Below, in pieces: positions 8,863-51,306 of a stretch of 52,866 nt of DNA. The notes beneath the pieces are model-generated. The model was not told where the DNA came from. It saw only the letters and a program-made list of their open reading frames with translations, and searched no databases. The position numbers and the translations under genes are program-made. Within the stretch, counting starts at the first letter, position 1. Every line of letters begins with the position of its first letter. This DNA is from a virus (taxonomy: Duplodnaviria; Caudoviricetes), in the IMG/VR virus record IMGVR_UViG_3300017971_000066, positions 1 to 52,866 of that record, one strand, 5' to 3'.

Positions 8863-9191
8863 TAAATGAACTCCACATATTCGATGAGATCTTTCCTGTC
8901 GCCAGCTTCGTATCGATGGACATTCATTCTTTTTATCCTGTTGCCTGCAATCTCCTGCAGGATCTGCTGCACCTGATTCATCTGATCAGCATTCATCTGG
9001 TAGATAGTATCAACCGCCTGCTTCATCTGGGTAGCTACTTTCTCTGAATTGTCTGGAACAATAATCGGTGGTGGAGCTTCTGCAGCTGGTGCAACCGGAG
9101 TTGTTTTATTCGGTTTACGCTTGATCCTCGTATTCGATTTCCTCTCAAGCGCCGCCAGCTCTTTCGATGACAGTTGCCTCATCCCAGACAC
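8862..9191 (-). CDS. Hypothetical protein (109 aa)
   Basis: Coupled ORF overlapping the 3' end of the 1568-aa gene; Pro-rich linker and a helical segment. Confidence 0.7.
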   Translation of the reverse strand: MSGMRQLSSKELAALERKSNTRIKRKPNKTTPVAPAAEAPPPIIVPDNSEKVATQMKQAVDTIYQMNADQMNQVQQILQEIAGNRIKRMNVHRYEAGDRKDLIEYVEFI

Positions 9192-12100: not shown

Positions 12101-13885
12101 ATCTTTTGGCGGCTCGCCTTTGACTTGCTCAGGCATACCGCGCTCATCGAACATCTGTTCCTGCTCGGTTTCCTGTATTGGCTGCGGCGTTCTGAGCGCC
12201 TGCAACACGTCCTGTGCAAACTTCTTGGCAAAGCGCACGCCTTCGCCCGTGGAAATGCCCTTGGCCTCAATACCGGCTTTTTTCAGATCCCTGCGGATAG
12301 CACCGGGATCTCCCTCTACCATCAGGCTACCCTGCTCGGTAATGCGCATGCCGTACCTGGTGGTTGGGCCTTCAGTCGTGACCGGGGCATGACCCATATT
12401 AATAGGGGCCGGCAGACCAGCTCTGTGCGGGGTCGCGGGTAGTGCTGGCTGGCCTACTGGCATTGCAGCATCAGTTGGCTGCAGCTGTGGCTGCACCAGA
12501 ATTTCTTCATTGATGATCGGGCGCGTTAATGCCTCGACCTTTTTGTATTCTCTTTCGACGTGCGGCAGCGGATGTGATGTCGCGGCATCCGTATAAGGAT
12601 TTGGTCGAAGGCGATCCATGTCAGCCGTGCTTTGGTATGGCTGGACGATATCAGTTGTGTTAAAGCTGACTGGTTCTAGAGCTTTTGCTGCCGCTTGTTC
12701 TTCAGCCGCGCGCATGTCCTGCTGAAATTTAGCAAATCCCTGAACCTCTTCAGGTTTGGTCATGTCCACGCCGGTATTGTCGGTTACCGCATCGGTGACG
12801 GTATCACCGGTTTTCAGCTTGTTGACCACGGCCAGCTCGCCGATACTCATTGGAGCCGACATCAATGATTCCAGTACAGCATCCGTGGCGGACGCTTCAC
12901 CGGTTGCAGCTAATTCGCCGGCATATTCACCGATACCCTCGGCGAATGTCTCATTCGAGAATGCACCAACACCACGGGCGATATTCTTACCCTTGGTGGT
13001 CGCTTCGGTAAATGCTTTACCACCGGCTGCGACAACCTGTTCGGCAATATTCCTGTCAGCCATGGCAGCAGCAACGGCTGTTTTGTCGGCCACATCAACG
13101 CCATTGCGTGCCAGAACCTTGGATACAGCTTGCTCTACAGCTTTGCCAGGTACGCCAAGAATCAACTTTGACAGACCCATGGAAAGAGCATCAACACTGG
13201 TAATTACGCCACCCTTGATAATGCCCTCAGACAAGGCGTCGATACGCTCTTGCTCGGTAAATTCTTTGTCTTTGGCCTTTTCTGTTGCCTTGAAGCCGGT
13301 TTCGATCAAGGTGTTGCCAGCGAACAATCCGATAAGGCCGCCAACAACTGTGCCGACTGGACCTGCTGCTGTGCCGACTGCACCACCGGCCATCATGCCG
13401 CCCATAGCGACACCCATGTTCGGCAGCTGGGCACCCAGCTCATCGAGCGCACCCAATGGCGATTCCCAGATAGCACCGGCTACATTGGAGATACCATCAA
13501 GAATACCTTCATCGCCCTCTTCCATACGCTTTGCCAGCGCATCATAAAAGAGCTTCTGATCATCAGTGACGTTGGCCGATTCAAGATCAGCAGCATTGGC
13601 CACGACATCATCGAGATCGCCAACAGAAGTATTCCAGGCCGCCTTGGTGCCAGCCCAAAGTTTCTGGAAACCACCTCCTACAGCGCCCAGCCAGCTGTCA
13701 TCGATCCAGTCTCTTTCTTCCTCATTGGCCACTGGCTCCCAGTCATCCATTGAGGCACCAACTGGCTCCCAGTCATCCATTGAGGAACCGACTGGCTCCC
13801 AGTCATCCTGGCTCCACTCATCCGCAGCGTTTTGCTGACGATTGAGAATATCTCTCTGTTCGTCAGATAAATAGCCGTATGCCAT
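9179..13885 (-). CDS. Large internal virion/ejection-type polyvalent protein with an embedded C5 cytosine DNA methyltransferase domain (1568 aa)
   Basis: Last of the ejection-type gene block, with a Gly/Ala-rich hydrophobic N-terminal third. At ~10020-10660 it carries MTase motifs SLFDATG (motif I variant), QPPCT (IV), LENPVG (VI), YTKKTDFW and RSLTPEGIAYAFFVAN. Confidence 0.8.
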   Translation of the reverse strand: MAYGYLSDEQRDILNRQQNAADEWSQDDWEPVGSSMDDWEPVGASMDDWEPVANEEERDWIDDSWLGAVGGGFQKLWAGTKAAWNTSVGDLDDVVANAADLESANVTDDQKLFYDALAKRMEEGDEGILDGISNVAGAIWESPLGALDELGAQLPNMGVAMGGMMAGGAVGTAAGPVGTVVGGLIGLFAGNTLIETGFKATEKAKDKEFTEQERIDALSEGIIKGGVITSVDALSMGLSKLILGVPGKAVEQAVSKVLARNGVDVADKTAVAAAMADRNIAEQVVAAGGKAFTEATTKGKNIARGVGAFSNETFAEGIGEYAGELAATGEASATDAVLESLMSAPMSIGELAVVNKLKTGDTVTDAVTDNTGVDMTKPEEVQGFAKFQQDMRAAEEQAAAKALEPVSFNTTDIVQPYQSTADMDRLRPNPYTDAATSHPLPHVEREYKKVEALTRPIINEEILVQPQLQPTDAAMPVGQPALPATPHRAGLPAPINMGHAPVTTEGPTTRYGMRITEQGSLMVEGDPGAIRRDLKKAGIEAKGISTGEGVRFAKKFAQDVLQALRTPQPIQETEQEQMFDERGMPEQVKGEPPKDFGGPKGLDRIQDITFRAGLKNMTAELVEGGDIQYTYDENDRITGRTPSINPDWFQSGGYPSVKALRNAVDKALAGKRLGIRQQEWVEGMLDMLEMERVEGQDYVHETLAEENIDGIAQEYYESDWDTETRSIADLVVATENAGVDPEVVMNLLERNLSDAAIVRELTRLKENADGQKVQEGRKQDEAEDFQLETYTEEDIAKREAQKVEPEPEPEGEFTLTGSDREVDQREARGQTNLLDQIEKTETEEYIGLKFTEQFEIEPNPQSDTSFFVKNNPKEKLTDHFKVGDIIVKIDRNEAGGREVEYRVTELANDIEGDTDSAFMRLVRVEEGADFEILGAGQNETMSFVAVQNGKVIDHLWYTNGIEGYADGNEYQLIQRPGETFEEYDARVLKRSEEAVAGIDYKIDEEAEAAEDAFRDEFGNWDGFTVSEEYFTPTQGRVNLRKKEQTPPQVSQAEANKIIKGWKQAAKDAGKNEDNSNRVIISLFDATGEISKPWKDAGYQVVQYDLKLGDDIFKYPPVGQIQEIKDAGFEIVGVIAQPPCTCFAASGARWWNERHDPKDNDMVNAMFGPDAAEYFNEPKQYTKALVAMTDMLIGLAEPTQFTVLENPVGRIASEMGMPEATLKFEPHHFGDDYTKKTDFWGNFNPNLPTANVDPKQGSLMHKMWSRAEKDEGLRSLTPEGIAYAFFVANHKPVEQKAAEPGSPRAKGEAMFDKSYEDRLPAGEKKKFVDGYIAGLAGIAINDNMIEGKDLGLYSVANTIGRADARTKTFDLTGEENTIAFAENLEAEYDAKRGERQAEEQAKRDKKLKQFREQEKKDMARAEREAEERKAQEELERRTLQETDVVPKNGKPFATKGAAKSFQTKNGYSSYEIVEVGDSSGNTGYALRKPEAQETVSQQDAEMAAFMDNIDKQTEKKGRPLAKIKLVDKETVLDPEGNEIEIETRATAEELVAEQQQQLDMLEKLKECLG
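13731..13808 (-). repeat. 30-bp tandem repeat (~2.6 copies) encoding DDWEPV(G/A)
   Basis: actggctcccagtcatcc recurs at 13731, 13761 and 13791. Confidence 0.9.
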
Positions 13886-26735: not shown

Positions 26736-26969
26736 CTACTGCTGATTCTTCCGAATTCTGGTTAATACCTCGTCCACGCTGTCGAACATGGCAAGCTGGT
26801 CCGCTATGAACTTCGCTTTGCCCTGGCCTCGGCTTAATTGGACGCCATCAATTATTCTGTTTTTCTTATCCTGTTCCGCCAGCTCCGCTTCCAGATGCTC
26901 CCGGTACTTCAGGAAGTCTGTAGACATGGAGAGCTTCTTCAGGCTCAGGTACAGATCGTTACTGGCCAT
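26736..26969 (-). CDS. Small head-assembly protein (77 aa)
   Basis: 'RGQGKA' motif; position between portal and scaffold. Confidence 0.65.
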   Translation of the reverse strand: MASNDLYLSLKKLSMSTDFLKYREHLEAELAEQDKKNRIIDGVQLSRGQGKAKFIADQLAMFDSVDEVLTRIRKNQQ

Positions 26970-29131
26970 TAAATGCCAGACCCGAACTGGGCTTTAATCT
27001 GTGCCTCATCCGCAATGACCTGACGCTTGTTCTGTGCTGCCAGGATCGCCTGCTGGTATTTCGCCTGCGCATCATGTACGGCTGATTCATATTCCAGTCG
27101 CAGCTTGTCGCGTTCGCGCTGGTCATCGACCTTGGCCAGCATGATCTTGAGCTGGCGTTCACGCTCGCGGTCCTGCATTTCCATCTTCTGGTCTTCCAGT
27201 CGTGACTGCATGCGGATCTTCTCTTTTTCAACAGCAGGATCCTGCTGCTGTCCCTGCTGGGCTGCCTGCTGCTGTTTCTGCTGCAGCTCTTCAAAAGTGG
27301 GCACGCGTACATCCATGTCCAGATCATTAACAACCTGGCGGAGTAGATCTGTGCGGCCTTCCAGCCCAAGAATCTGCATATCAACCGGGTTATTGGTCAG
27401 CTGCATGAACTCATTGCGGCGGGCCTGATTCGCGGCTTTGGCAATCATCGCGGAAGATCCACGGGCCACAACAGCAATATCGCCTTTGATGTCTTCATCA
27501 GGCTCGTACAGCATGTTCCAATGGAACTGGCGCAGAATACGCTTCTCGATCACGCCTTCATCCACATGACGGACCGCTTCTTTAATCGTCTTGGCGGCAT
27601 TCTCGGACATGATGGCAATACCCATCGCTGTCTGGGCACCCTGCGGCATACGCTGATCAATGCCATAGGACATCTTCGATACACCGGTGACGTCGGCAGC
27701 CTGCTCCCAGAAGTGAGTCAGCACCCCTAAAAGCTCCTGCGCATTGGAATCTGGCTGGAAGAACTGAATCGGTGACTGTGTGTTGCCGTTCGGGTCACTG
27801 GTCATCTGCCAGTTTTTCCACGGATACAGCGCCTCGATCTCTTCACCTTCCGGCAGCCGGTCAATCAGGGTAATGATCTGCGGACCAGATGAAATGCCCA
27901 TGTTGTTGGACAGGGCGCGGGCCGAAGCATTGGCCATACGCTGGTGACCACGCAGTAATTGCGGGATCGCTATGCCCCAGAAGTGACCTGGGCGGTTGCG
28001 GTAGCTCGCTTTGTAGTACGGACGGCGGTCCAGCGGATCACTGTTGATGCATGCCTTGATCACATGACGACCAATCAGGATGGCCTCGATCTGGTATTCC
28101 GCCAGAGGATCTTCGATCTGCTCGACCGGGATTCCCCATTCCATCAGCTCAGTACCCTGCGCAGAACCCCAGTAATGCAGCGCCTCGATCAACCCATCTT
28201 TGTCGGCAAACCAGTCGTCTTGCTCCTTCTCGAACAATCCCCACTCTTTGTAGCCTTGGTCATACTCCATCAGCACCTGACGGATCTTGTCTTCACGGTA
28301 ACCCGGTACAGATATCAGCCCGTAGATCTCGGACCGTGGCAGGCGCTTTCTGATAATCAGGTTGCCTTCATCGATCTCAATCTGTTCGGGACTTGGAAAT
28401 ACATCATACGGAGACACGCGGCGATCAATCTCGCACACAGTCTGTTTCATGACCGGTTTACCGCGCTGCCACTTCAGCTTGGACTTGCGCTGGTAGGATG
28501 TTTCGATAAATGCCGTCGGGTATGTGGTGAAATCGTCGATAAAATCCTCGAAAGCACCAGACCACTCAGAATCAACCAGCTGGTCCTCGATCTTCCTTTC
28601 CATCTTGTCGGACGCTTTAGCGACCATTTTGGCGATCTCGGACTTCTCCTTCTCCGCCAATTCATCAATGCGGGCCATCATCTGCGGCATCTGCGGCTTA
28701 ATACCCTGCTGCTGGGCCTGCTGAACCTCCTGATAGAACTGCCGCTTGATATTCTCAAGTGCCTTCTCATCGATCTCTGGTTCTGGTGTCGGATCCAAAG
28801 ACCACGGCTTATCACCGGCTGGCATCAGGATATCAGTCAGCCAGGCGGACGCTGCGACACACTGCATCTGCGTTAATGGCAGGTAGATATCAGAGCCACC
28901 CATCCGCTTGATCTCAGCCTGAACGTCCGGATCATACTGGTTATTGCGGGATCTCTGGCATTCCTGCAGAACACCTTCGATCTTGGACTTGTGCGACTTG
29001 TTAACCTCCCACTGGCGGCGAATGCGGGAAGACAGATTGTCGGTGAACATCTCGATAACGCGCTTCTGCTCTTCTTCTGCAGCGGCGTTCTCTTGTTCCA
29101 CCATCTCGGCGTTTGAGACAACTCTAAGCAT
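26969..29131 (-). CDS. Portal protein (720 aa)
   Basis: Follows the terminase; 'PWSLDPTPEP', 'FWGIAIP', 'TAMGIAIM' and a long C-terminal coiled coil. Confidence 0.9.
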   Translation of the reverse strand: MLRVVSNAEMVEQENAAAEEEQKRVIEMFTDNLSSRIRRQWEVNKSHKSKIEGVLQECQRSRNNQYDPDVQAEIKRMGGSDIYLPLTQMQCVAASAWLTDILMPAGDKPWSLDPTPEPEIDEKALENIKRQFYQEVQQAQQQGIKPQMPQMMARIDELAEKEKSEIAKMVAKASDKMERKIEDQLVDSEWSGAFEDFIDDFTTYPTAFIETSYQRKSKLKWQRGKPVMKQTVCEIDRRVSPYDVFPSPEQIEIDEGNLIIRKRLPRSEIYGLISVPGYREDKIRQVLMEYDQGYKEWGLFEKEQDDWFADKDGLIEALHYWGSAQGTELMEWGIPVEQIEDPLAEYQIEAILIGRHVIKACINSDPLDRRPYYKASYRNRPGHFWGIAIPQLLRGHQRMANASARALSNNMGISSGPQIITLIDRLPEGEEIEALYPWKNWQMTSDPNGNTQSPIQFFQPDSNAQELLGVLTHFWEQAADVTGVSKMSYGIDQRMPQGAQTAMGIAIMSENAAKTIKEAVRHVDEGVIEKRILRQFHWNMLYEPDEDIKGDIAVVARGSSAMIAKAANQARRNEFMQLTNNPVDMQILGLEGRTDLLRQVVNDLDMDVRVPTFEELQQKQQQAAQQGQQQDPAVEKEKIRMQSRLEDQKMEMQDRERERQLKIMLAKVDDQRERDKLRLEYESAVHDAQAKYQQAILAAQNKRQVIADEAQIKAQFGSGI

Positions 29132-29375
29132 TTATGCGTCCTGTCTGTTCATCGTGTAGTTCAACCAGCGTTTGGTAACCTGGGCGTGATCGATCAGCAT
29201 TAATCATGTCCCGGTTGGCTATCTTAAAATCTGTTATTGCCCGGCGTGCCCGGACCTCATCTTTCTTGGCCAGTGTCAGCGACTGAAAGAAATTGCCTTG
29301 GTAGTAATACACCCGGCCTTTCATCTGTTTCTTGGTTCTCACTTCCGCCAAGATCGTAATATCCATCATGACCAC
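29124..29375 (-). CDS. Hypothetical protein (83 aa)
   Basis: ORF overlapping both terL and portal. Confidence 0.55.
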   Translation of the reverse strand: MVMMDITILAEVRTKKQMKGRVYYYQGNFFQSLTLAKKDEVRARRAITDFKIANRDMINADRSRPGYQTLVELHDEQTGRINA

Positions 29376-30865
29376 CCGGATGCAGCCTTCGCTCTGACTG
29401 CACGCGCTTTCGGCCTCGCGTTCACCAGCAGGATCGGATTAGCAAATGACATCATCAAAGCATCCGCCATGTTGGGTGATTCAATACCCAGTCTGGCCAT
29501 ATCCTGCTTGGACATGATCTGGATCAGGCCGGTCGGGGTCCGCTTTAATGGGATCCTGCACACCTCGGATCTCAGCAGATCCAGCGACTCAATGCCTGAA
29601 TCGAATGAGATCAGCTCATCCGGGTCAAAGTATTTCTTCTTCTCTACCGCTTGGTAGGTTCTGTAAATCCGGTCACGAAGCAGCCAGTAGTATTGTGCGC
29701 GCTTGTTCTTAAACGTCTGCTTGTTGGTCTTCACACCTACATCACCAGCCGCTTCGTAAAGGTCGTCGGGTCTGTCTACGGAATTTGATCCCTTGAACAT
29801 TTCGACTTTAATTCGTTTGGGCATCAGCGCATCTTTAAACTGGCGCCGAAGGCCTACTCCCATTCCGTCACCGTCCCATAAGAACATATCGGGCTTTCGC
29901 TCTTCGCAGTATTCGATGGCCCAGTCTCCGCCTTCATTGATGTCGCCGATGTTTCGCTCTTGAGCATCAAGGATGACAACGCCGTGACGATAAGTAAGGC
30001 CTTTAGCGTCCGAACCATCGTCTGACGGGTCATGAGTGACAATTTCAATACCTCTTGGTTCAAATCCCAGCACCTTATGCGCATCTACGCAGGCATCAAA
30101 CCAATGAGGCATGATGATCGCGTTCTCGACTGTATCGGCATAAGCTCCCAGCCACTTGTGTTCATACGCTGCAGGACTCAGGTTTTCCTCGTCATCTGCG
30201 CGCTCAGATTCAAGACCAGACGCCTCGAACCACTTCTTTGGCATGTCAGTGTAGTTAATCTCGACGATCATGATGTTGTCGTCTTCGTAATAACCGCACC
30301 TGGCTAAATCTTTTTCAGCACGCTTGAGCCACTTCTGACTGATCGGATCCGTGCTGTTGCCCCGGTTCAGGGTGATCCAGATCTCCGGCATTTTGACATC
30401 TTCGCCGGCTATCACTCGTTCGGCATCTGCTGCAGATAATCGAAGACTGGCGGACAATACGCGCAATGTCTCAGCGCTTAGGCTGTCTCCTTCCTCTATC
30501 CAGAGCCCGTCAACACCGGAAAGCATTGACTTCAGGGATCCGATATTCCTGCCCAGGCCGCGGTAGAAGTTCCTGCCGCCACTGGCGTGATAAATGTGGT
30601 TGTTGTCGCTGGTGAATCCCTCGAACCCCAGCCGAACCGCTTCATCAAGCATCAGTCTGTGAACTGACTCGTCAATACTGTTCTGGAATTCACGACCGCA
30701 GCACCAGAGCTGCCCCATGCTCATCCCTGACAGAACGTAGTCAGATACGAACGTGGACTTGGTTGAACCTCGACCACCGACAATGATCTTGATTCTCTTC
30801 GATTTGAGAATCAGCGGCTCAAGTTTTTGAGCGCATTTAATCCTCATCCGGTGCAGTGCCGACAA
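29366..30865 (-). CDS. terL: Terminase large subunit (PBSX/Terminase_3-like, 499 aa)
   Basis: Walker A GGRGSTKS, REFQNSIDESV, Walker B LWIEEG and nuclease SPNMADALMM. Confidence 0.95.
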   Translation of the reverse strand: MSALHRMRIKCAQKLEPLILKSKRIKIIVGGRGSTKSTFVSDYVLSGMSMGQLWCCGREFQNSIDESVHRLMLDEAVRLGFEGFTSDNNHIYHASGGRNFYRGLGRNIGSLKSMLSGVDGLWIEEGDSLSAETLRVLSASLRLSAADAERVIAGEDVKMPEIWITLNRGNSTDPISQKWLKRAEKDLARCGYYEDDNIMIVEINYTDMPKKWFEASGLESERADDEENLSPAAYEHKWLGAYADTVENAIIMPHWFDACVDAHKVLGFEPRGIEIVTHDPSDDGSDAKGLTYRHGVVILDAQERNIGDINEGGDWAIEYCEERKPDMFLWDGDGMGVGLRRQFKDALMPKRIKVEMFKGSNSVDRPDDLYEAAGDVGVKTNKQTFKNKRAQYYWLLRDRIYRTYQAVEKKKYFDPDELISFDSGIESLDLLRSEVCRIPLKRTPTGLIQIMSKQDMARLGIESPNMADALMMSFANPILLVNARPKARAVRAKAASGWS

Positions 30866-31217
30866 AAGTAATCATGCCGGTATGTTTGTGCGTGTTCTCG
30901 CTGGTCACGACTTTCTCGACCTTATCCTGCCAGCCGAAGTTATTTTTCAGGTTGAAAATACAGCCGGCAGGGTTCCGCCCAGTGAGCAATCCCAGCTCGA
31001 TTCCATGCTCGACTCTGAGCTTTGCTTTTTTTACTGTGTCAGAAAATTTGTCTTTTTCCCCGTATTCCAGCAATCCCTGTCTGGTCAGATCCAGAGCAAG
31101 GCAGAGTCCAGTAACAGTAGCGGGAAGCTCATCGGCAGCGCATTCAGCGAAGTATCCATCGATCTTCTTCTGCATTTCTGCGACAGTTTTGAATTTGGGT
31201 GGTCTACCCGCGCCCAT
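30837..31217 (-). CDS. terS: Terminase small subunit (126 aa)
   Basis: GRPPKF, TVTGLCLAL and IFNLKNNFGWQDK; directly upstream of terL. Confidence 0.9.
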   Translation of the reverse strand: MGAGRPPKFKTVAEMQKKIDGYFAECAADELPATVTGLCLALDLTRQGLLEYGEKDKFSDTVKKAKLRVEHGIELGLLTGRNPAGCIFNLKNNFGWQDKVEKVVTSENTHKHTGMITFVGTAPDED

Positions 31218-31578
31218 CTTTCATAGTCTCCTGAATTGCTGCGCTCAGTTGTGATTGTGTTGGGATGAGAATAGTTGTCTCACCTTTTTCGTGTCTGTCT
31301 CTACGCTTATCGGATATTTGTTTAACGACCGCCAAGGCGATTTCCCCGATACCCGTGTTGGGATCTTTAGCCAGATGGCCCAGCTGGTCCCGGTCCAGAC
31401 TGAAGGTGATATCGATATTGTCCATGGTGACAAATCTCACAGTGAACCCGGAGTTATCATCGTGCCTGAAGAACTGCAGACCATTGTCGTCAGTATCAGG
31501 AAGTTTGCTGCGATCTGCCAGCTCGCCCAGTATCTCGGACATAACCTGGAAGATCTCACGAAAATTAAATTCTTGCAT
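31204..31578 (-). CDS. Hypothetical protein, first gene of the late operon (124 aa)
   Basis: GAGG RBS before ATG 31578; overlaps the terS start. Confidence 0.65.
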   Translation of the reverse strand: MQEFNFREIFQVMSEILGELADRSKLPDTDDNGLQFFRHDDNSGFTVRFVTMDNIDITFSLDRDQLGHLAKDPNTGIGEIALAVVKQISDKRRDRHEKGETTILIPTQSQLSAAIQETMKDGRG

Positions 31579-31834
31579 ATTACCTCGGAGGCTACTCGCG
31601 TTTCCGGGTTGGGGTGAAGGTACCCGCCAGCAAGGGAGGCTAACCGGCGGGCCTTCGTTCAACACAATAAACTACAGCTTGGAGTTTGATACCGGGAGTT
31701 TCACCCACTATCACAATTCAGTATATATCTGCACAGTGAATTTAAAAACCGGCATATCTATCGCTTTTAACCCAGCAAAACGTACAGTCTGCACGCATGG
31801 GGTAATTAGCGGACACTTTTTTTTCATCAAACCC

Positions 31835-31863
31835 TTGCATTATCGTGACGCGTCACATATATT
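31835..31863 (+). promoter_or_regulatory. Sigma70-like promoter with a palindromic operator in the spacer
   Basis: TTGCAT-17 nt-TATATT; perfect palindrome GTGACGCGTCAC at 31845-31856. Confidence 0.75.
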
Positions 31864-31916
31864 CGTATTAGAGCGTAAGCTCAGAACCAAAACTCACAAA
31901 CGAAAAGGAAAGGAAA

Positions 31917-32105
31917 ATGGACAGATACAATTCACAATACGAGGAATATGACGGTATTCAGGTAGAACACATCGAAACCATCGAGATCACTGCAGCAGCA
32001 GATGAAGATCTCCCATTCTATAAATTATTTGACATCCTCATGTTCGGGCTGGCCGCAGCAATTATCTGGCTCGGCGCTGTCGCATCACTCATCATGATTT
32101 ACTAG
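31917..32105 (+). CDS. Small acidic protein with C-terminal TM helix (62 aa)
   Basis: AAGGA RBS; C-terminal ILMFGLAAAIIWLGAVASLIMIY. Confidence 0.7.
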   Translation: MDRYNSQYEEYDGIQVEHIETIEITAAADEDLPFYKLFDILMFGLAAAIIWLGAVASLIMIY

Positions 32106-32115
32106 GAGCAAGACA

Positions 32116-32352
32116 ATGGAAAAAACCATCAAAATCTCAAACACCATCGATCTGACAGTCGTACCCAATGACGACCGGCCCGGCGTGAATATCTTCATCG
32201 AGAAGGTCGTCGAAAGACGTGGCCGCCGGATCACTGTAGCCTACGCCTCACTGGCTGTTGCCCAAGACTGGGAAGAGTTTGACGACGGCACCCGCGTTCC
32301 ACAATACGCCATCAAGGCAGCCGAGAAGCTGGCCGAGAAAGTCGGTTACTAA
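32116..32352 (+). CDS. Hypothetical protein (78 aa)
   Basis: AGGAG RBS; codon usage similar to neighbouring genes. Confidence 0.75.
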   Translation: MEKTIKISNTIDLTVVPNDDRPGVNIFIEKVVERRGRRITVAYASLAVAQDWEEFDDGTRVPQYAIKAAEKLAEKVGY

Positions 32353-32353
32353 A

Positions 32354-32411
32354 GTCGAAACCGCCTCCGGGCGGTCTGGCCGGGCGGTTCCCGGTCACTG
32401 ATGAGACAACC
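32354..32411 (+). ncRNA. Type II hammerhead ribozyme with a loop I / 3' tail pseudoknot
   Basis: GUC-GAAA-CCGCC(UCCG)GGCGG-UC^-UGGCCGGG(CGGUU)CCCGGUCA-CUGAUGA-GAC-AACC: full catalytic core, three stems and a GGUU/AACC pseudoknot. Predicted cleavage is after C32376. Confidence 0.93.
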
Positions 32412-32427
32412 AATTAGGAGCAATACA

Positions 32428-32985
32428 ATGACACTCAAATACGAAAAAACTGCAGAAATCGGCGACATGATCAAAGCCTATGACTTCCAGCCATACGCCG
32501 GCAGGGCGCCTTCGTTCATCGAGGGCAAGGTCGTCAACAAGGGCTATGACCTGTCTGTACCTTACGCCGCCTATGAAGTCGTCGTTACCCGCGACGTTTT
32601 CGGTGGTGAAGAAGAGCAGGCCCGCATCGGTGAAACCTTCTACGTGCCATTCGAGTCAACCATGGACTACGACGGCAGAGTAGAGGTTATCGTTAAACCC
32701 AGCCCAATGGTCGTCACTCGCAAGATTGGCCGCAACAAGGGCCGGCCCAGACTCTGGTTGGAGGGCAAGATCCTGACCGCTGCCGGCTTCGGGCCCGGTG
32801 ACCGGTACAATTTTGTTGAAGGCTGGATCATTAAAAACAACGAAGAAGGCTCCAGAAAGATCTCCGGCAAGGGTGATAAGCCCATCGTCGATATTCTGGG
32901 CCGGGCGCTGGAAGAGCTTTTCGATGAGATCCCAGAAACCGTGACAGTGACAGTCGCTGGTCCCGGTTTAATTTTAATCAGGTAG
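32428..32985 (+). CDS. Two-domain protein with a C-terminal AbrB/SymE-like domain (185 aa)
   Basis: AGGAG RBS at 32416-32420; C-terminal 'PRLWLEGKILTAAGFGPGDRY...PIVDI...VTVTVAGPGLILIR'. Confidence 0.7.
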   Translation: MTLKYEKTAEIGDMIKAYDFQPYAGRAPSFIEGKVVNKGYDLSVPYAAYEVVVTRDVFGGEEEQARIGETFYVPFESTMDYDGRVEVIVKPSPMVVTRKIGRNKGRPRLWLEGKILTAAGFGPGDRYNFVEGWIIKNNEEGSRKISGKGDKPIVDILGRALEELFDEIPETVTVTVAGPGLILIR

Positions 32986-32992
32986 CACAGCT

Positions 32993-33030
32993 GTTGGCGG
33001 TTTCATCATGGAATCGCCAACTTTTTTTTT
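32993..33030 (+). terminator. Intrinsic terminator
   Basis: Stem GTTGGCGGTTTC...GAATCGCCAAC followed by T9. Confidence 0.85.
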
Positions 33031-33041
33031 GGAGAAATAAC

Positions 33042-33380
33042 ATGAAATACACTGTAATAACCCAGTATTACGACGCTGACGAAGTGATCCAGACCGTAAA
33101 AGAAGAGTTTGGATCCATGTTAGACGCCAGAAGTGAAATGCGCCATGCACTGGAAGATGAGGCCACTATCCTTGTCAAAATCTGGGAAGGTGACTACAAG
33201 GTATCGCCAATGGAAACGGTACAGGGCAAGTCATTCAGGGAAATGGCGCTGACCCCTGCTGAACGTCAAGCGCGGCGCAGAGCCCGCCAGCAGGCAGCAG
33301 GCTTTAAGGAAGTTCGTGGGATCTGGGCAACCCCTGAACAGGAAATCAAAATCAAGCAGTTTGCCCGCTCGTTAGTTTAA
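33042..33380 (+). CDS. Protein with a C-terminal putative RHH/antitoxin-like DNA-binding domain (112 aa)
   Basis: GGAG RBS; 'ALTPAERQARRRARQQAAGFKEVRGIWATPEQEIKIKQFA'. Confidence 0.7.
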   Translation: MKYTVITQYYDADEVIQTVKEEFGSMLDARSEMRHALEDEATILVKIWEGDYKVSPMETVQGKSFREMALTPAERQARRRARQQAAGFKEVRGIWATPEQEIKIKQFARSLV

Positions 33381-33390
33381 CTTCCAATTA

Positions 33391-33434
33391 AAACGGGTTT
33401 TTTGCAGAAAAACTGCAGAAGGCCCGTTTATTTT
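33391..33434. terminator. Hairpin between convergent operons
   Basis: AAACGGG-TTTTT-TGCAG-AAAAA-CTGCA-GAAGG-CCCGTTT, followed by a T-rich run. Confidence 0.6.
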
Positions 33435-33778
33435 AACTTTCTTTCCAATTTGCTGTGCAGTTCATCTATCCAGCTGCGCACCGTGTTCCTGTGAATCTTC
33501 ATCTGCTGCGCAACCCGCGCATTCGAGTGACCGGCTTTGTACTTGCATTTACATAACCTGATCAGCTTGGGTGGTAGTTCACCGATGGCATGATCAATCG
33601 ACATCATCATGTCTTCGTCCAGTAGTGTTTTATCCCAGACAGTATCCGAGCCTTCCCCCGCTTCGATCTGTTTTCTTTTTATCAGCCGACCGATGACTGT
33701 CCCACCCCGGTTTATTATCATGTCGCCGCGACTCCAATCCCCCCACTGCCACAGCTTTTCTTCTACCGACTGTATCAT
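33428..33778 (-). CDS. Late-gene regulator, antiterminator Q-like with sigma region-4-type HTH (116 aa)
   Basis: 'EEKLWQWGDWSRG' N-terminus, 'IDHAIGELP' and a C-terminal HTH; last gene of the nin-like region. Confidence 0.7.
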   Translation of the reverse strand: MIQSVEEKLWQWGDWSRGDMIINRGGTVIGRLIKRKQIEAGEGSDTVWDKTLLDEDMMMSIDHAIGELPPKLIRLCKCKYKAGHSNARVAQQMKIHRNTVRSWIDELHSKLERKLK

Positions 33779-33890
33779 CCACCAGAACCTCTTTTGTCGA
33801 AAACCTGAACCCACAGTTCTGGCACTGCCTTCGGCGACGGTCCGTCGTTCGTATTACGTTCGTCTTCGCGTCGCACTTTGGGCATTTCAA
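33630..33890 (-). CDS. Zinc-ribbon protein (NrdR N-terminal-like)
   Basis: MKCPKC...RRRRQCQNCGFRFSTKE. Confidence 0.75.
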   Translation of the reverse strand: MKCPKCDAKTNVIRTTDRRRRQCQNCGFRFSTKEVLVDDTVGRRKAVAVGGLESRRHDNKPGWDSHRSADKKKTDRSGGRLGYCLG

Positions 33891-34588: not shown

Positions 34589-34778
34589 CCTCGTCGATCT
34601 CTTCGGGTTTTGGTTTGTAGGCCCACTGTCGGCAGCGCTCGCCGATCTTGGGCCAGCCGTCCATGCCGATCAGACATCCGCCAGACCGGTGTTGCTGACA
34701 AGTGGAACAGTCTAGGATCGAAGCAGACCAGCCTCGACTAAAAGTTCTGTTGTGCGATGGGTACCTTCGTAAAACCAT
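34581..34778 (-). CDS. Small Cys-rich hypothetical protein (start uncertain)
   Basis: CSTC...C...C pattern filling the gap between two genes. Confidence 0.4.
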   Translation of the reverse strand: MVLRRYPSHNRTFSRGWSASILDCSTCQQHRSGGCLIGMDGWPKIGERCRQWAYKPKPEEIDEDA

Positions 34779-35020
34779 AAGCGCAGTAGCTCTTGTTTGT
34801 AATTTGTTTTTATTCTTCCGTCTACAGCATCATGACAAGCGCTGCATCCGTATGAACCATAGTCTACTTTTTTGCCGTCCGGGGATTTGAATACAGATTT
34901 TCTTCCCATCCCAGCCCCAGGTGCATGACAGAACACTACTGTCTCAGGGTTATGGTTGCAAATTCCGGGCACCCTGATCAGGCAGTCTTGGCCTCTTGCA
35001 GATTCTGTGATCTTGCTCAT
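34712..35020 (-). CDS. DUF1364/YbcO-like zinc-binding putative nuclease (102 aa)
   Basis: SARGQDCLIRVPGICNHNPETVVFCH...CSACHDAVDGR. Confidence 0.88.
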   Translation of the reverse strand: MSKITESARGQDCLIRVPGICNHNPETVVFCHAPGAGMGRKSVFKSPDGKKVDYGSYGCSACHDAVDGRIKTNYKQELLRLWFYEGTHRTTELLVEAGLLRS

Positions 35021-45814: not shown

Positions 45815-45898
45815 ATGGATATTTTGTTCTTATGGCTGTGCTTTGTAGGTATTGCCGGGCTGATCGCAGCCGTCTGGGATTACCTGTCAAATCACTGA
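45815..45898 (+). CDS. Antisense hydrophobic micro-protein (27 aa), probably leaderless
   Basis: MDILFLWLCFVGIAGLIAAVWDYLSNH; fills the gap between two minus-strand genes. Confidence 0.55.
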   Translation: MDILFLWLCFVGIAGLIAAVWDYLSNH

Positions 45899-48800
45899 TA
45901 CATTACCTCGCGATATGTTTCCATATACCGGTCCATGATCTTCAGCTCCTGCTCTTCAATTCGTCTGACCAGATCGTCGCGGTCCTTCTTGATGGCATTC
46001 TTCTTCTGTTTTTTCAGTTTGTTCAGCTGACTCTTGGTGAGCTTGTTTGTCCCGAATAGTTTGCGACGCTGCTTGATGTCGTCAAAAATCTTTCTGACCT
46101 GCGTATTATCGCCTTCGCTCTTGGCCCGGTTCACAGCTGCCTTCACATCCTCGATCTCGTAGAAGGCATCATAGAATGAGCGCTTGCGATCAGAAGGACC
46201 GACCTCGCCGATAACTTTCCTGGCAATAGGAATGTCGCGCCATTCCATTTCTGGACCTTGAGTTGCTGCGTTATATATAAACCTGCCACTATCCACAGCA
46301 ACGCGACCAGCAGCACCGGTCAATGTATCTGCAATCATGTCCACCCACTCAGGCGACCAGTCGATCAGTGACTTCTGGGTACCAGGGTTCTTGGTGATTT
46401 CTGCCAGCCATTTAGTGAAGGTCTTATATTCCTCTGGAACATTCTGATAGAACTTCGTGTGATCTGGCTGGCTCTTGTTGTAGTCCGGGTAAAGCGGTCC
46501 GCCGTGCCAGTCTTTGTTCTCTGATATCTTAGTAATCGGATCCGCGATGGTTGGCGTCAGAGTTTGCAGGAATGAGCCATCCTGTATCGGGTTAAAGGCT
46601 TGCAGCGAAGCAGAGAAAACTCTACCAGCAGATTCTGCTACAGAGTATCCATCAATGTTACCGCGTGCGGCATCAGTTGCCTTACCGATCTCCTGACCCA
46701 GAACATGGAATATATTGTAGCCCCATGGCAGTGGTATCTTGGCATAGCCATCGTCAAAGGTACCGGTTGGATCCATGATGATCAGGTTACGCTCTTTCAC
46801 ATGGTCTGGGATCTTGTCGTATTTTGACTCTTCGTCATCATCATCCTGACCCAGAGCCCTGTTTAGCATGTCCAGCGCTGTCGCAAAGCCTACGGTAGCG
46901 AGCAACATACCGCGCAGCTTCCAGTTGCCCTTGGCGAAAATAGCCCGCAGCATGCGCACAGTGCCCTGTATGGATGCGTTATAGAACAGGTAGGCAGAGT
47001 TAAGGACCATGCCCCATTCGCCTTTCCTGTTGAAGTCCACGGTGATCTCTTTAGAAATCCTGGCGGCTTCTTTGGCGCTTAGTCCATGCTCCTTGGCAGA
47101 GATAAAGGTCGATAGCCTGATACCGTTTTCTACAATCGTGTTGTAGTCCTCGATCCACTTGAGCATATCGAAGAATTGTTTCGCGCCAGGCTTCGTGCGA
47201 CGACGCAGATTCGATTCAATGCTCTTCATTAGTGAATCGATATCTTCATGGCTCTGCAGCCAGCCCGTCATGCCGCCAAGTTTTCGGAACTCCCTGAAGT
47301 CATCGGCATACTCAGCGGTTCCGTCACCACGCAGCACGCTACGAATAGCTCGCAGCGCCTTTGGCGCTCTGGCCATGGTGGTCAGCTCCATGTTATTTAC
47401 GTCTGTGTCCGTCAGGTTATATCCAGCGGTCTGCACATCACGGAAGAAGTTTGATATAACGAATTCCGGAGAAAGACTGGTATTGATTGCCGACAGGTAT
47501 CTATTGATCATCATCAGGAAGTTAATCAGTCGATTGCCCTGATCCATGTTCAGATTCTTCATGGCAGTGGCGATGCGTTCGGCATGCTCATTGTCGCTCT
47601 TGAACCAGATGTACTGATTCACGCCGTTGAATTTAACAGCCATCAACTGGTCATCAAGCATATTCTCGCGGCGCTTGGCCACTCCCAGTTTATCGAGATA
47701 AATATCTTCCGGCTTATCAACAACTGACCACATATTGTCATCAGGATTTTCGACCACGAAACGATACATATCCTGAGCAATCTTGTTCTTTTGGCCACGG
47801 ACGATACCAGCCTGCGCATTACCCACCAGATGCGCGATCATATTTTTATAGTCCACAGTCTTTTCAGAGCCGCCCCTGATCTTGCTTGGTTTTCCGCGCA
47901 TATCGAAACCGCGACCCCTGCCTGGCATATCACCAGCAACATCTTTACGGTTCAATGGAACGTAGTATCTGTAGTTTTGACGCCATGCCATTGCTTCTTC
48001 TTCAGTCAGCAGCTCATCGGCTACCAGTTGGTTGACGTGCCTATTGCTGACCTCATCGACAATCTCAGCAACACGGCGCAGCTTGTTGTTGTTGCCATAG
48101 CGTATCAGGATCCCTGCAGCTTCTTCGTTTGACATACCGGACAGCGCCTTGTTCGGACGGTCGGTAACCTCCATAGCCTCGATGTCAGCCAATAGCCTGG
48201 TAAGTCTTGCGTGTTCGCCTTCCAGATTAGCCATCTGCGGAGATCTTGCGGTAGCGCCGGCCTCGCGCAGCTGGGCCATATCAGCCTCTACAACTGATAT
48301 TTCCTCGGTAGTCTGCGCGATGCGTTCGTCTTTTTCCTGCTGGGTAGGGTTCCTGAAGCGCAGCACTTCATTGGCCTCTTCAGCATGTCTGGCGTGTAGG
48401 TATTTTCCTACATCCTCGAACGACATCCCGGTAGCCTTGATTGCGTCCGCCAGTGGTTCAACGTATGCCTGCTCGAAATCCTCGATAACCGCACGGGTTG
48501 CGCCAGGGTAAAGCGTGACAGTGCGCTCGACATCTACGGTATCAGGATTTGCCTCTTTGGCGGCCTCCTGAACCTTGCTCAATGCATGGAATCGATTGTA
48601 GAAAAGCGTCTTCAGCTTGTCGCCAGTGGTGAACGTATCATCGAAGCCGGTTTGCTCTGTGCTGTAATTGGAAGACTCTTCTTCAACGGTGTAGGATTTT
48701 TCACGGACGGTGTATTTCTTCTCGGCGCCCTTCATGACCAGCGAGAATGGAGAAGTCCACTGGTCAGCCATCAGCGCATCAATGACCACGCCATTTTTCA

Positions 48801-51306
48801 CAGCGGCTTGGGCGAGTGACTCAAGTGCAGTAGGAACATTGACCAAGAACATTTCACCCGCACCAGTCTGCCTGGAAAAAGCTCTCGCCTCGGCCAGCAG
48901 TTTACGGCGCTTGCGCATCTTGTTCTGCTCTGCATACAGATCCATAGCTGGGATAGATAGAATGCCGGCCACACCATTACGGTTGATGCTGACCAGCTGC
49001 ATCTGACCTTTATGGTTATCACGCAGCTCTTTGGCGAAGGCCGCCAGTGTATCTGGGCTGTTGATCGTATAACCCAGCAGCGGGTGATCCTTGGTTGGGT
49101 TCTTGCCGACTTCGTAGGAGTCTTTCGGAATGCGCTTGCTGATTACACTCTTGGTGCCATTCTCATCAATGAATCCGTAGGTGTTGCCATTGATAATGAC
49201 ATGGCCTTTGAATCCTTTGAGCTCAGTCTGGAAGACGCCAGTGATTCCGATATCAGCAGAAGACGCGTCCGGATTTCCGGATGGGTGATTGTGCTGCATC
49301 CAGAAACCGTCAGCTTCCAGCGTTTTCATTTGGGCCCGGATATCAGCTAATACCTGCTCTTTGTGTTCTTTGTTATTGAAGATCTGCACAACACCTGGCA
49401 TGCGCGATGTCAAGCCGGTCTGACCTACGATCTGATCGCCCTTGGTGTAGAATACTCGGAATGTTTCGACAGATGGGTTGCGGTATATTTCCGCCAGATC
49501 CGCCAGCTCTTGGTGATTCCTTACGACTTGTCCGGTGAGCTTGGTGGTTCCCCGGTCTTTGAAGTCGGCAGCAATTTGATTGGCGAGTATGGTACCCGAT
49601 CTCGCACTCCATAGAGAAACCAGTCCTTCGGCTTGCTGTCTGGCACGATTGTCAGCGTCGGTTTGTTTTTCAGGGTCAACTTCATACTTGAACTCAGACT
49701 CTACAGTTTCGCGGACCTTTCCTTCCGTTCCTTCTGCATCAACCTGGCTCTCTTCATAAGTTTCCGCAGCTCTGCTTTCTCGCTTGGAGTCCAGTCTGGA
49801 CTGAAGTGCCTGTAATAGTCCATCGATTTGTTCTGCTTCGGCATTTGATAGTTTCTCCTGTGAGTCCAGCCTTCTAATCACGTCGTTGATGTCACGCTTA
49901 ACACCCTCGGCGCCAGTGAAGTGACCATTGAAAGTTATCTGCCCACTAAAACAACCTATACCCCTGCCTTTATCACATTTCAAGCAGTTCCAGCGTTTCT
50001 TTTGACCGGAGTCAACAGGACAGACTTTATCTTTTACAATTATCGGGATGTCTTCAATGACTTCATTGGAGGCACCAAAATTCTTGTCGCCATAAACTGG
50101 CAGCACAACCTGCACCCGTTCAGGCTGATCATGCATCAACTTTTCTTCACGACCACCATTCAGGTTAATAGCCAGCGGCAGATCATTGCCAGCTGCCAGG
50201 TCAACATTACTGTCATCGATAGATAACAGTCTGGTGTTGCGAGCATCCACTTTCTGAAGGAATTCAGGTTTCTTCGAGAACACATGGGTCCGGATATTTT
50301 TCCGGTTCAGCTGGGTGATCATTTCTTGGTGAGCGTCTGTGCCGTCACCGATATCGAACATGCGCAGTGCTGTTGTTTTCCATGCAGCCCCGACGCCATC
50401 TTCTGAAGATTTGAATTCTTCAGCTGCCATGTTGGCGGCACGCACGGGATCGCGCTGCGTCATCAGATCGACCAGCTCGGCCTTGGCCTTGGAAGCTGGC
50501 CAGATGTGACGACCAGCTGTTGCATAACAGAATTTCGCACAGGCCTTGGATGGATCGCAGTTCTGCAAGGAGGAATTCACTGTGAATTGTGGTTTGCCAG
50601 CCTTGCCTAGAATCTTGTTTTTTTCCAGATAACGCCAGCCGCCTTCCCAGCCGTGCTGCTCAAGCATGTTTGCCAGCGTTTTATTCAGAGACTTGGCGTC
50701 TTCGGCTTTGATCTTGCCTTCAGCGACATCGATGATCTCCATGCGGTAGATCAGGCTGCGCTTTACTTCGCGTGCCCATGGGGTGGTTCTGTGAGCCTTG
50801 AGTCTTTCCTTTAGTTCCGGGCTGGCAGCCTTTGCCCAGTGGCGTTTTTCCACACGGCTATCCACATGCTGGGTGGTTACGGAAGCCTCGTAGCCTGTTT
50901 TACTTTCCTCTACGGTCATCAGGTCCAGATCACGGGCCTGCTTGTCGATAAACTCTTCAGTCAGCCTGGTAGACTCTGGTACCTGAATCTGATATTCAGA
51001 GCCTAGATCCTTGATGGTGCCATCAAACAGATCATCTGCAGTGACCACCTCGTCCTCGACAGGCGCTGCCTCAGTCACTTCAGGCATCACCATATCTTCA
51101 ATGACGCCGCCTTTATCACGAATCCTTCCCGCCAAGGTGTTGAAGTCCTCGACTGCCTGCACGATGGTATCATCAATCGCTCGCATGCCAGCCTCTGTCC
51201 GCGTCAGCCCGTCCTGCTGATATTCCTCGGCAAGAGACTGGATCTGCTCCTTGTATTCAGGTTTCAGATCTTTCGCTTTCTTCAGGCACTGGTTGAGCGT
51301 ACTCAT
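45892..51306 (-). CDS. Large polyvalent protein (1804 aa): Gp88-like Cys-rich domain, JAB/RadC domain, LPD38-like C-terminus
   Basis: CDPSKACAKFCYA, RMFDIGD and CP..C..C..C at ~49945-50600; HNHPSGNPDASSAD at ~49250-49295; C-terminal 'ITVDFNRKG...YLFYNASIQG...KIPLPWGYNIF...ENKDWHGGPLYP'. Confidence 0.82.
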   Translation of the reverse strand: MSTLNQCLKKAKDLKPEYKEQIQSLAEEYQQDGLTRTEAGMRAIDDTIVQAVEDFNTLAGRIRDKGGVIEDMVMPEVTEAAPVEDEVVTADDLFDGTIKDLGSEYQIQVPESTRLTEEFIDKQARDLDLMTVEESKTGYEASVTTQHVDSRVEKRHWAKAASPELKERLKAHRTTPWAREVKRSLIYRMEIIDVAEGKIKAEDAKSLNKTLANMLEQHGWEGGWRYLEKNKILGKAGKPQFTVNSSLQNCDPSKACAKFCYATAGRHIWPASKAKAELVDLMTQRDPVRAANMAAEEFKSSEDGVGAAWKTTALRMFDIGDGTDAHQEMITQLNRKNIRTHVFSKKPEFLQKVDARNTRLLSIDDSNVDLAAGNDLPLAINLNGGREEKLMHDQPERVQVVLPVYGDKNFGASNEVIEDIPIIVKDKVCPVDSGQKKRWNCLKCDKGRGIGCFSGQITFNGHFTGAEGVKRDINDVIRRLDSQEKLSNAEAEQIDGLLQALQSRLDSKRESRAAETYEESQVDAEGTEGKVRETVESEFKYEVDPEKQTDADNRARQQAEGLVSLWSARSGTILANQIAADFKDRGTTKLTGQVVRNHQELADLAEIYRNPSVETFRVFYTKGDQIVGQTGLTSRMPGVVQIFNNKEHKEQVLADIRAQMKTLEADGFWMQHNHPSGNPDASSADIGITGVFQTELKGFKGHVIINGNTYGFIDENGTKSVISKRIPKDSYEVGKNPTKDHPLLGYTINSPDTLAAFAKELRDNHKGQMQLVSINRNGVAGILSIPAMDLYAEQNKMRKRRKLLAEARAFSRQTGAGEMFLVNVPTALESLAQAAVKNGVVIDALMADQWTSPFSLVMKGAEKKYTVREKSYTVEEESSNYSTEQTGFDDTFTTGDKLKTLFYNRFHALSKVQEAAKEANPDTVDVERTVTLYPGATRAVIEDFEQAYVEPLADAIKATGMSFEDVGKYLHARHAEEANEVLRFRNPTQQEKDERIAQTTEEISVVEADMAQLREAGATARSPQMANLEGEHARLTRLLADIEAMEVTDRPNKALSGMSNEEAAGILIRYGNNNKLRRVAEIVDEVSNRHVNQLVADELLTEEEAMAWRQNYRYYVPLNRKDVAGDMPGRGRGFDMRGKPSKIRGGSEKTVDYKNMIAHLVGNAQAGIVRGQKNKIAQDMYRFVVENPDDNMWSVVDKPEDIYLDKLGVAKRRENMLDDQLMAVKFNGVNQYIWFKSDNEHAERIATAMKNLNMDQGNRLINFLMMINRYLSAINTSLSPEFVISNFFRDVQTAGYNLTDTDVNNMELTTMARAPKALRAIRSVLRGDGTAEYADDFREFRKLGGMTGWLQSHEDIDSLMKSIESNLRRRTKPGAKQFFDMLKWIEDYNTIVENGIRLSTFISAKEHGLSAKEAARISKEITVDFNRKGEWGMVLNSAYLFYNASIQGTVRMLRAIFAKGNWKLRGMLLATVGFATALDMLNRALGQDDDDEESKYDKIPDHVKERNLIIMDPTGTFDDGYAKIPLPWGYNIFHVLGQEIGKATDAARGNIDGYSVAESAGRVFSASLQAFNPIQDGSFLQTLTPTIADPITKISENKDWHGGPLYPDYNKSQPDHTKFYQNVPEEYKTFTKWLAEITKNPGTQKSLIDWSPEWVDMIADTLTGAAGRVAVDSGRFIYNAATQGPEMEWRDIPIARKVIGEVGPSDRKRSFYDAFYEIEDVKAAVNRAKSEGDNTQVRKIFDDIKQRRKLFGTNKLTKSQLNKLKKQKKNAIKKDRDDLVRRIEEQELKIMDRYMETYREVMYQ

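Follow-up and report, generated by a model that had tools for sequence, protein, structure and literature searches.

The DNA stretch analysed here, hereafter the window, covers the complete 52,866-bp record of an uncultured phage, with direct terminal repeats, a GC content of 49% and most of its genes on the minus strand. Its large terminase (TerL) is at most 43% identical to those of deposited phages, the best matches being Pseudomonas, Vibrio and Aeromonas phages, and the nearest genomic relatives of TerL lie in Gammaproteobacteria contigs, with 65-67% identity; the host is probably a gammaproteobacterium. Two very large minus-strand products are encoded elsewhere in the genome. One, of 1,568 aa (9179-13885), lies among the structural genes and contains an internal DNA methyltransferase domain at residues 1070-1301, and the similarity of the other, of 1,804 aa (45892-51306), is limited to the C-terminal portions of giant phage proteins without known function. 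Between the small terminase gene and an HTH/Q-like gene, beside the packaging genes, a plus-strand accessory island is located, the features of which are collected in Table 1. At six genome loci carrying TerL relatives, two of them at 65-67% identity, neither a hammerhead nor the island genes were found; the island is therefore dispensable accessory content, which may or may not be under selection.

Table 1. Features of the plus-strand island, of the hammerhead ribozyme within it and of the neighbouring genes, in window coordinates.
Feature	Position	Strand	Remark
Portal	26969-29131	-	
Large terminase	29366-30865	-	
Small terminase	30837-31217	-	
AT-rich non-coding stretch	31666-31916		GC 0.40
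Candidate sigma-70-type promoter, TTGCAT-17 nt-TATATT	31835-31863	+	by eye, 8/12 consensus positions
62-aa ORF, first island gene	31917-32105	+	hydrophobic C-terminal segment; no Pfam/PHROG match
78-aa ORF, directly upstream of the ribozyme	32116-32352	+	stop TAA 32350-52
Whole Rfam match, type II hammerhead	32353-32415	+	RF02276; identical result in whole-genome search
Stem II 5' strand GUC	32354-32356	+	partner GAC 32405-32407; sequence read
Core G12 A13 A14 and A15.1 (GAAA)	32357-32360	+	sequence and RF02276 alignment
Stem III hairpin	32360-32375	+	A-U and five G-C pairs, UCCG loop 32366-69
Predicted scissile bond	32376-32377	+	after C17 (C32376), before U1.1 (U32377)
Stem I hairpin, 8 pairs	32377-32397	+	loop CGGUU 32385-89; sequence, fold
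Core C3 U4 G5 A6 U7 G8 A9 (CUGAUGA)	32398-32404	+	sequence and RF02276 alignment
Stem II 3' strand GAC	32405-32407	+	sequence read
Pseudoknot tail AACC	32408-32411	+	partner loop I GGUU 32386-32389; sequence read
Shine-Dalgarno AGGAG of the 185-aa gene	32416-32420	+	sequence read
185-aa ORF	32428-32985	+	ATG 32428-30; fusion of two small phage-protein modules
Intrinsic-terminator-like hairpin	32993-33030	+	13 pairs, then T9; -18.7 kcal/mol, z -2.95
112-aa ORF, last island gene	33042-33380	+	GGAG 8 nt upstream; no PHROG/Pfam match
Second terminator-like hairpin	33391-33429	.	between the island and the convergent HTH/Q-like gene
HTH/Q-like gene	33428-33814	-	convergent with the island
YbcO-like gene	34712-35020	-	followed by primase and helicase

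Upstream of the island, the promoter scan returned no plus-strand promoter; the sigma-70-type candidate was found by eye, falls below the scan threshold and is regarded as a weak candidate for the island promoter. The spacer of this candidate, within the AT-rich divergent region, contains a perfect 12-nt palindrome, GTGACGCGTCAC (31845-31856), which may act as an operator. A 228-aa plus-strand ORF (31265-31951) was not accepted as a gene, since its translation resembles that of a non-coding frame, with a low-complexity product rich in Ser, Leu and Arg, and has no Pfam or PHROG match. The overlapping minus-strand ORF (31204-31665), which directly precedes the small terminase, more plausibly represents the gene at this position; it too gave no family match. 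Within the island, the initiation regions preceding the 78-aa and 185-aa ORFs, TAGGAGCAAGACAATG (32103-32118) and TAGGAGCAATACAATG (32415-32430), respectively, are nearly identical, with 15 of 16 bases alike. The 78-aa protein has a single viral relative (L005, 38% identity), and no hammerhead is present beside that homolog.

The ribozyme lies in the 75-nt gap between the stop of the 78-aa ORF (32352) and the start of the 185-aa ORF (32428), two plus-strand ORFs that both carry canonical Shine-Dalgarno sites. The first-pass annotation had described an intact type II hammerhead at 32354-32411 and had named the Rfam hammerhead models as a check on it. Each coordinate was re-read and is correct in the sequence, and the full length of the covariance model Hammerhead_II (RF02276; positions 1-66 of 66) aligns to plus-strand 32353-32415, with 45.2 bits against a gathering score of 37 and an E value of 4e-6. 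An open-ended stem II defines the type II hammerhead, and this is the topology observed, with stems I and III closed by loops and stem II open to the flanks. In stem III, A32360 and C32361-C32365 pair with G32370-G32374 and U32375, while stem I pairs U32377-G32384 with C32390-A32397, including one G-U among its eight pairs. The cleavage triplet is GUC, with C32376 as its last base, and the scissile bond was placed from the known chemistry of the family together with the model alignment.

The core listed in the available text of Perreault et al. 2011 (PMC3088659) consists of C3 U4 G5 A6 N7 G8 A9, G12 A13 A14, the A15.1-U16.1 pair and H17. All of these positions are occupied as expected, by CUGAUGA 32398-404, GAAA 32357-60, U32375 and C32376. 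The core-adjacent pairs 10.1-11.1, 1.1-2.1 and 15.1-16.1 correspond to G32405-C32356, U32377-A32397 and A32360-U32375, and the tertiary contact between stems I and II is provided by pairing of GGUU 32386-89 with AACC 32408-11. As read from the sequence, the element is a genuine, complete, pseudoknotted type II hammerhead in sense orientation in an uncultured phage. The genome-wide RF02276 search identified it as the sole hammerhead of the complete genome, and neither further ribozymes or structured RNAs at their family gathering scores (matches to E<=10 inspected) nor tRNAs were found in the window. A second GGUU, at 32344-32347 inside the end of the 78-aa ORF, is likewise complementary to the AACC tail and could rival loop I for it. 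A promoter-like match inside the ribozyme (32401-32429) was discarded, the region having five such matches against a shuffle mean of 7.1.

A search for the primary-sequence skeleton of the motif gave a single match in the window, and 100 dinucleotide-preserving shuffles gave none. Stems III and I both reappear in the nested minimum free energy (MFE) fold of 32345-32425, the energy of which is unexceptional (z -1.37; 15 of 200 shuffles fold as well). An ordinary fold energy is expected here, because the motif is defined by its core and tertiary contacts and not by energy, and the evidence therefore rests on the core and on covariation. The fold energy is the point that would fit an inactive relic or a chance match. 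Such an origin is hardly credible in view of the E value and full-length extent of the model match, the lack of the skeleton in the shuffles, the intact core, a pseudoknot in register with that of the relatives and a typical genetic context.

Against deposited phages, blastn of the region retrieved 15 records, all of them Streptomyces phages, at 81-89% identity, and the matches are limited to the ~60 nt of the ribozyme. A pattern scan of IMG/VR with the stem III and core of the window yielded at least 120 stretches; taken by stem II, stem I and tail together, these comprise 112 different combinations. The search pattern itself fixes stem III in this set; each of pairs 1-5 of stem I is formed in 110-112 of the 112 combinations listed, with 5-6 pair types per pair. 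Position-specific counts were made for the pairing between loop I and tail. For hammerheads whose stem I spans 6 bp and whose loop counts 10 nt, in-register pairing is Watson-Crick in 111 of the 120 loop-tail cells, while slid registers give 17-48, and one pseudoknot position displays three pair types. Hammerheads of the second class (8-bp stem, 6-nt loop) give 145 of 180 cells in register and 1-82 slid. These counts supersede a cruder test on the longest loop-tail helix, which gave a small excess (mean 4.09 with own partners, 3.45 with permuted partners and 3.24 with shuffled tails).

For the geometry of the window itself, an alignment of 16 sequences was assembled from 13 with the window's stem I together with L082, L084 and Paedore. 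In this alignment, 13 rows of which were picked by a pattern fixing stem I and the structure of which was derived from one row (the window), 97.3% of the cells are paired, compared with 85.4% in shuffles and 30-51% in slid controls, and 11 of the 21 pairs change on both sides. The middle pair of stem II is G-C in ten of the 16 relatives, C-G in four and U-A in two, and four of the six stem III pairs show changes on both sides. The pseudoknot keeps the same register, with 87.5% of its cells paired and one pair changed on both sides: two of its pairs are invariant (G-C in 16/16 each), the third is U-A in eight, U-G in three, C-G in one and unpaired in four, and the fourth is U-A in eleven, U-G in one and unpaired in four. 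Collectively, these sequence comparisons indicate that the stems and the pseudoknot covary among the relatives, and that pseudoknot covariation is strong in the two other geometry classes.

The position of the ribozyme between its neighbours is equally characteristic. The annotation had placed it 1 nt after the upstream stop (TAA 32350-52) and had counted 4 nt between AACC and AGGAG, and both distances hold on re-reading of the coordinates. A survey of placement covered 124 distinct related phage hammerhead sites, the window being left out. Upstream, an open frame of at least 40 codons was sought with its stop end within -6 to +10 nt of the first base of stem II, and this arrangement was found at 112 of the 124 sites; downstream, 102 sites have a Shine-Dalgarno site and a start codon no more than 40 nt past the ribozyme end, the ORF so opened again being at least 40 codons long. 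Both occur together at 95 of the 124 sites, versus 47 of 2,480 random same-strand sites, and at one of the 124 when the opposite strand is considered. By the measure of the survey, the spacing in the window (1 nt and 20 nt) is typical. With the window counted (125 sites), the stop-end offset is -1 in 37 cases and 0 in 26, and the stop often overlaps stem II. The packing of stop, ribozyme, Shine-Dalgarno site and start is the rule among related phage hammerheads.

This close apposition can also be read as a sign that the ribozyme is gated by translation, with ribosomes that terminate upstream or initiate downstream blocking its folding, so that cleavage would report ribosome traffic. The stop 1 nt from stem II, the ribosome-binding site 4 nt from the pseudoknot tail, the preferred offsets of -1 and 0 and the retention of the architecture at most related sites are consistent with such coupling. 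With the stop 1 nt away, a terminating ribosome would shield stem II together with half of stem III; this also counts against the operon-splitting role set out below, as cleavage may be less constitutive than that role assumes. Against gating, tight packing is the default of phage genomes, and folding during transcription would usually be quick enough to be complete before the first ribosome arrives. Translational gating as the role of the element is accordingly given a slim chance.

The role that we consider probable, with some reserve, is that a functional type II hammerhead splits the mRNA of an accessory operon into two independently stable and separately translated messages. The operon would comprise the 62-aa and 78-aa ORFs, the ribozyme and the 185-aa and 112-aa ORFs, expressed from one promoter. 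During transcription, stems III and I would fold and the 3-bp stem II would close; the 4-bp pseudoknot between loop I and the 3' tail would then dock stems I and II, and the RNA would cleave itself after C32376. At its 3' end, the upstream 62/78-aa message would carry the stem III hairpin, a 1-nt overhang and a 2',3'-cyclic phosphate. The downstream 185-aa message would begin with the fully paired stem I hairpin carrying a 5'-OH, and its Shine-Dalgarno site would lie 19 nt beyond that hairpin in weakly structured RNA. Since stem II is the open stem, each product should keep a closed hairpin at its new end, and since only 3 + 4 bp join the two products, they should separate. The ratio of upstream to downstream protein would in this manner be set without a host endonuclease.

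The predicted folds of the products display hairpin-capped ends and a mostly open ribosome-binding site. This agrees with the hairpin-capped, 5'-OH downstream RNA that had been anticipated in the first-pass annotation, as the predicted downstream product carries the fully paired stem I at its 5' end. It is well established that 3' exonucleases need a single-stranded toehold, and that RNase E, which prefers and is stimulated by a 5'-monophosphate, is impeded where a hairpin sits at the 5' terminus. These properties are put to use in synthetic hammerhead insulators, and, to our knowledge, Gammaproteobacteria do not possess RNase J. Splitting into two stable messages is judged the likeliest role because of these properties of the exonucleases and of RNase E, taken together with the hairpin ends.

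Cleavage could instead act as a negative control that lowers the expression of one side, through decay of either the 5'-OH downstream RNA or the upstream RNA left without a terminator. The upstream fragment does lose the operon terminators, and an analogy exists in the glmS ribozyme of Bacillus subtilis, where RNase J1 breaks down the 3' product, which carries a 5'-OH. An outcome of this kind is improbable here: stable terminal hairpins are predicted on both products, the likely gammaproteobacterial hosts would be without the enzyme responsible for glmS product decay, and in E. coli the usual effect of RiboJ-type insulators is a higher or more uniform downstream expression.

The downstream message had furthermore been described as a terminator-ended, monocistronic mRNA for the 185-aa gene. 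The terminator was recovered, as a hairpin followed by U9 that begins 7 nt past the ORF. The term monocistronic fits less well, since the 112-aa ORF follows, starting 12 nt after the U-tract and preceding the second terminator. Because this ORF lies between two terminators, some read-through is likely, and the monocistronic character of the message is uncertain.

For the 185-aa protein itself, which belongs to no Pfam or PHROG family, a full HMMER search at E<=0.001 returned 677 proteins. Of the 150 matches listed, almost all have a length of 85-110 aa and cover either residues 1-90 or residues 94-185; as each match covers one half, the protein is a fusion of two stand-alone phage modules. This two-module fusion is previously unnamed, and both modules are widespread, with no function assigned. 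In one case, a C-module relative makes up the N-terminal part of a C5 DNA methyltransferase of 690 aa. The fold predicted for residues 1-90 is an SH3/Sm-like barrel, and that for residues 94-185 an AbrB/MraZ-like double barrel (AF2), the module models reaching pLDDT values of 96.5 (N) and 95.4 (C). In VIA-align, the best partner of the C-module is MraZ 1n0e (Z 5.6, rmsd 2.8, 81 aligned residues), short of the trust level of about 8 of that tool, and comparison with B3, EcoRII-N, SpoVT, AbrB and MazE gave Z values of 2-4, also below that level. The N-module reached at most Z 6.7 with Sm/LSm, bL19 and Tudor-like barrels, which is too weak for naming its fold after any of them. Foldseek against the PDB gave nothing at E<=0.001 for either module, and a PDB sequence search with either module profile gave nothing below E 0.68. 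In the Atlas, the C-module has a neighbour cluster in which 13% of the members carry SymE_toxin. Nucleic-acid binding is at best a reasonable guess for the 185-aa protein.

The viral relatives of this protein were also compared with the distribution of hammerheads. The single-protein query found no relatives in viral contigs, and no homolog of the 185-aa protein was found in the loci compared, among them 120 with a hammerhead. A profile search of viral contigs with the C-module recovered 58 loci. Our own descriptor, which recovers 14 of 20 known sites, detects a hammerhead in one of these 58 loci, and at the Rfam cut-off one of 50 C-module records is positive, namely G009. A linkage of the gene family to hammerheads was rejected on these counts.

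The single positive record, G009 (= L134), is a complete phage of 42,222 bp that has the C-module gene as its sole gene in common with the window phage. Its hammerhead shares the stem I subtype of the window and precedes the C-module homolog by 333 nt, and the order on one strand (L134 1104-1827) is hammerhead, 39-aa ORF, C-module homolog. The subtype is not confined to this pair. The string formed by the 21-nt stem-loop I and the core in the window (32375-32405) is letter-identical in 16 IMG/VR contigs (L187-L202) with locus GC between 0.49 and 0.67, some of which are Streptomyces-phage-like; in these contigs, stems II and III differ and the neighbouring genes are unrelated. Identity of stem I and core across such base compositions suggests horizontal spread of a ribozyme subtype.

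Arrays of type II hammerheads were encountered in the Streptomyces phages Spernnie, Daudau and Paedore of the Arquatrovirinae (L002, L003 and L004), where 15,192 bases (~5 kb from each phage) contain 20 hammerheads at the RF02276 level. One ribozyme lies between almost every pair of small genes, always in sense with the flanking genes, and whole ribozyme-plus-gene units differ between the phages. In pairwise blastn of the three, many homology blocks start or end at a hammerhead. Our literature search found no paper describing these Streptomyces-phage arrays. One of the Spernnie copies is identical to the ribozyme of the window in stem I, loop I, core and AACC tail, has compensatory changes in stems II and III, and likewise lies between a stop codon and a Shine-Dalgarno site. 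The two settings differ in density and composition, the Arquatrovirinae arrays having 20 copies in 3 x 5 kb at ~66% GC and the window one copy at 49% GC.

From these observations, type II hammerheads might be regarded as portable intercistronic processing cassettes exchanged between unrelated phages, perhaps serving as short homologous joints for accessory-gene swaps. In its strongest form, this reading holds that the ~55-nt conserved sequence spreads as a cassette end or recombination joint between cistrons, with any effect on expression being incidental. The identical stem I and core string in contigs of different GC content, with differing stems II and III and unrelated neighbours, fits such mobility, all the more as stem I is elsewhere free to vary (5-6 pair types per position); the otherwise unrelated G009 and the coincidence of homology-block ends with hammerheads in the three Streptomyces phages point in the same direction. 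The sharing of stem I is, however, a raw count, and gene boundaries in phages are mosaic joints with or without ribozymes. The full catalytic core and the compensatory changes in all helices also argue for selection on cleavage and not on mere identity. We consider both forms of the idea unlikely, with an outside chance of being right. If the cassette reading were true, the type II topology would be favoured, as it alone leaves a protective hairpin on both products, and the window would represent a single-copy outpost of the Arquatrovirinae array system.

Splitting of the operon mRNA, the role preferred above, had been presented in the first-pass annotation as processing by a ribozyme located between genes. 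The location stands; as an idea, the role is not new, since Perreault et al. 2011 (PMC3088659) had already suggested that hammerheads cut long phage transcripts down to mRNAs of gene length. According to the available text of that paper, tandem prophage hammerheads cleave polycistronic transcripts of ~2 kb in vitro, and those of A. tumefaciens also do so in vivo (PMC3088659). A 2019 review, in the text available, puts forward the same role for phage and prophage hammerheads and calls their purpose undefined. In Olzog et al. 2021 (PMC8782182), three type II hammerheads located near phage-like genes of Desulfovibrio vulgaris are reported to cleave both in vivo and in vitro. No later functional work on phage hammerheads was found in the literature search.

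The type II hammerheads of phages and prophages (RF02276, PMC3088659) resemble that of the window in the core, the open stem II, the pseudoknot between loop I and tail and the sense orientation between phage genes. They differ in that the published prophage examples, as described in the available text, cluster around a gene that they flank, whereas the window has a single copy, in a phage distant in its TerL from those deposited and upstream of a gene for an unnamed two-module fusion. The D. vulgaris hammerheads (PMC8782182) are likewise of type II and lie near hypothetical or phage-like genes, including DNA-binding and HTH genes; for these, cleavage in vivo and in vitro is described, whereas for the ribozyme of the window it is predicted from the sequence.

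As an instance, the element adds little, being one more phage hammerhead of a curated family with a role already proposed in print. The effect of intercistronic self-cleavage on the two mRNA halves is an open question in the available text of the 2019 review, and the survey sharpens it, given the 95 of 124 sites between a stop and a Shine-Dalgarno site and the occurrence of one subtype across very different base compositions. The island offers a clean test case, with a single consensus-core ribozyme, one promoter region, four small genes and strong terminators. An engineered counterpart exists in RiboJ, a device derived from a satellite-RNA ribozyme that makes downstream translation independent of upstream sequence. 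RiboJ resembles the element described here in placing a hammerhead just upstream of a ribosome-binding site and in generating an mRNA led by a hairpin with a 5'-OH, and the ribozyme of the window differs from it in being natural, of type II and pseudoknotted.
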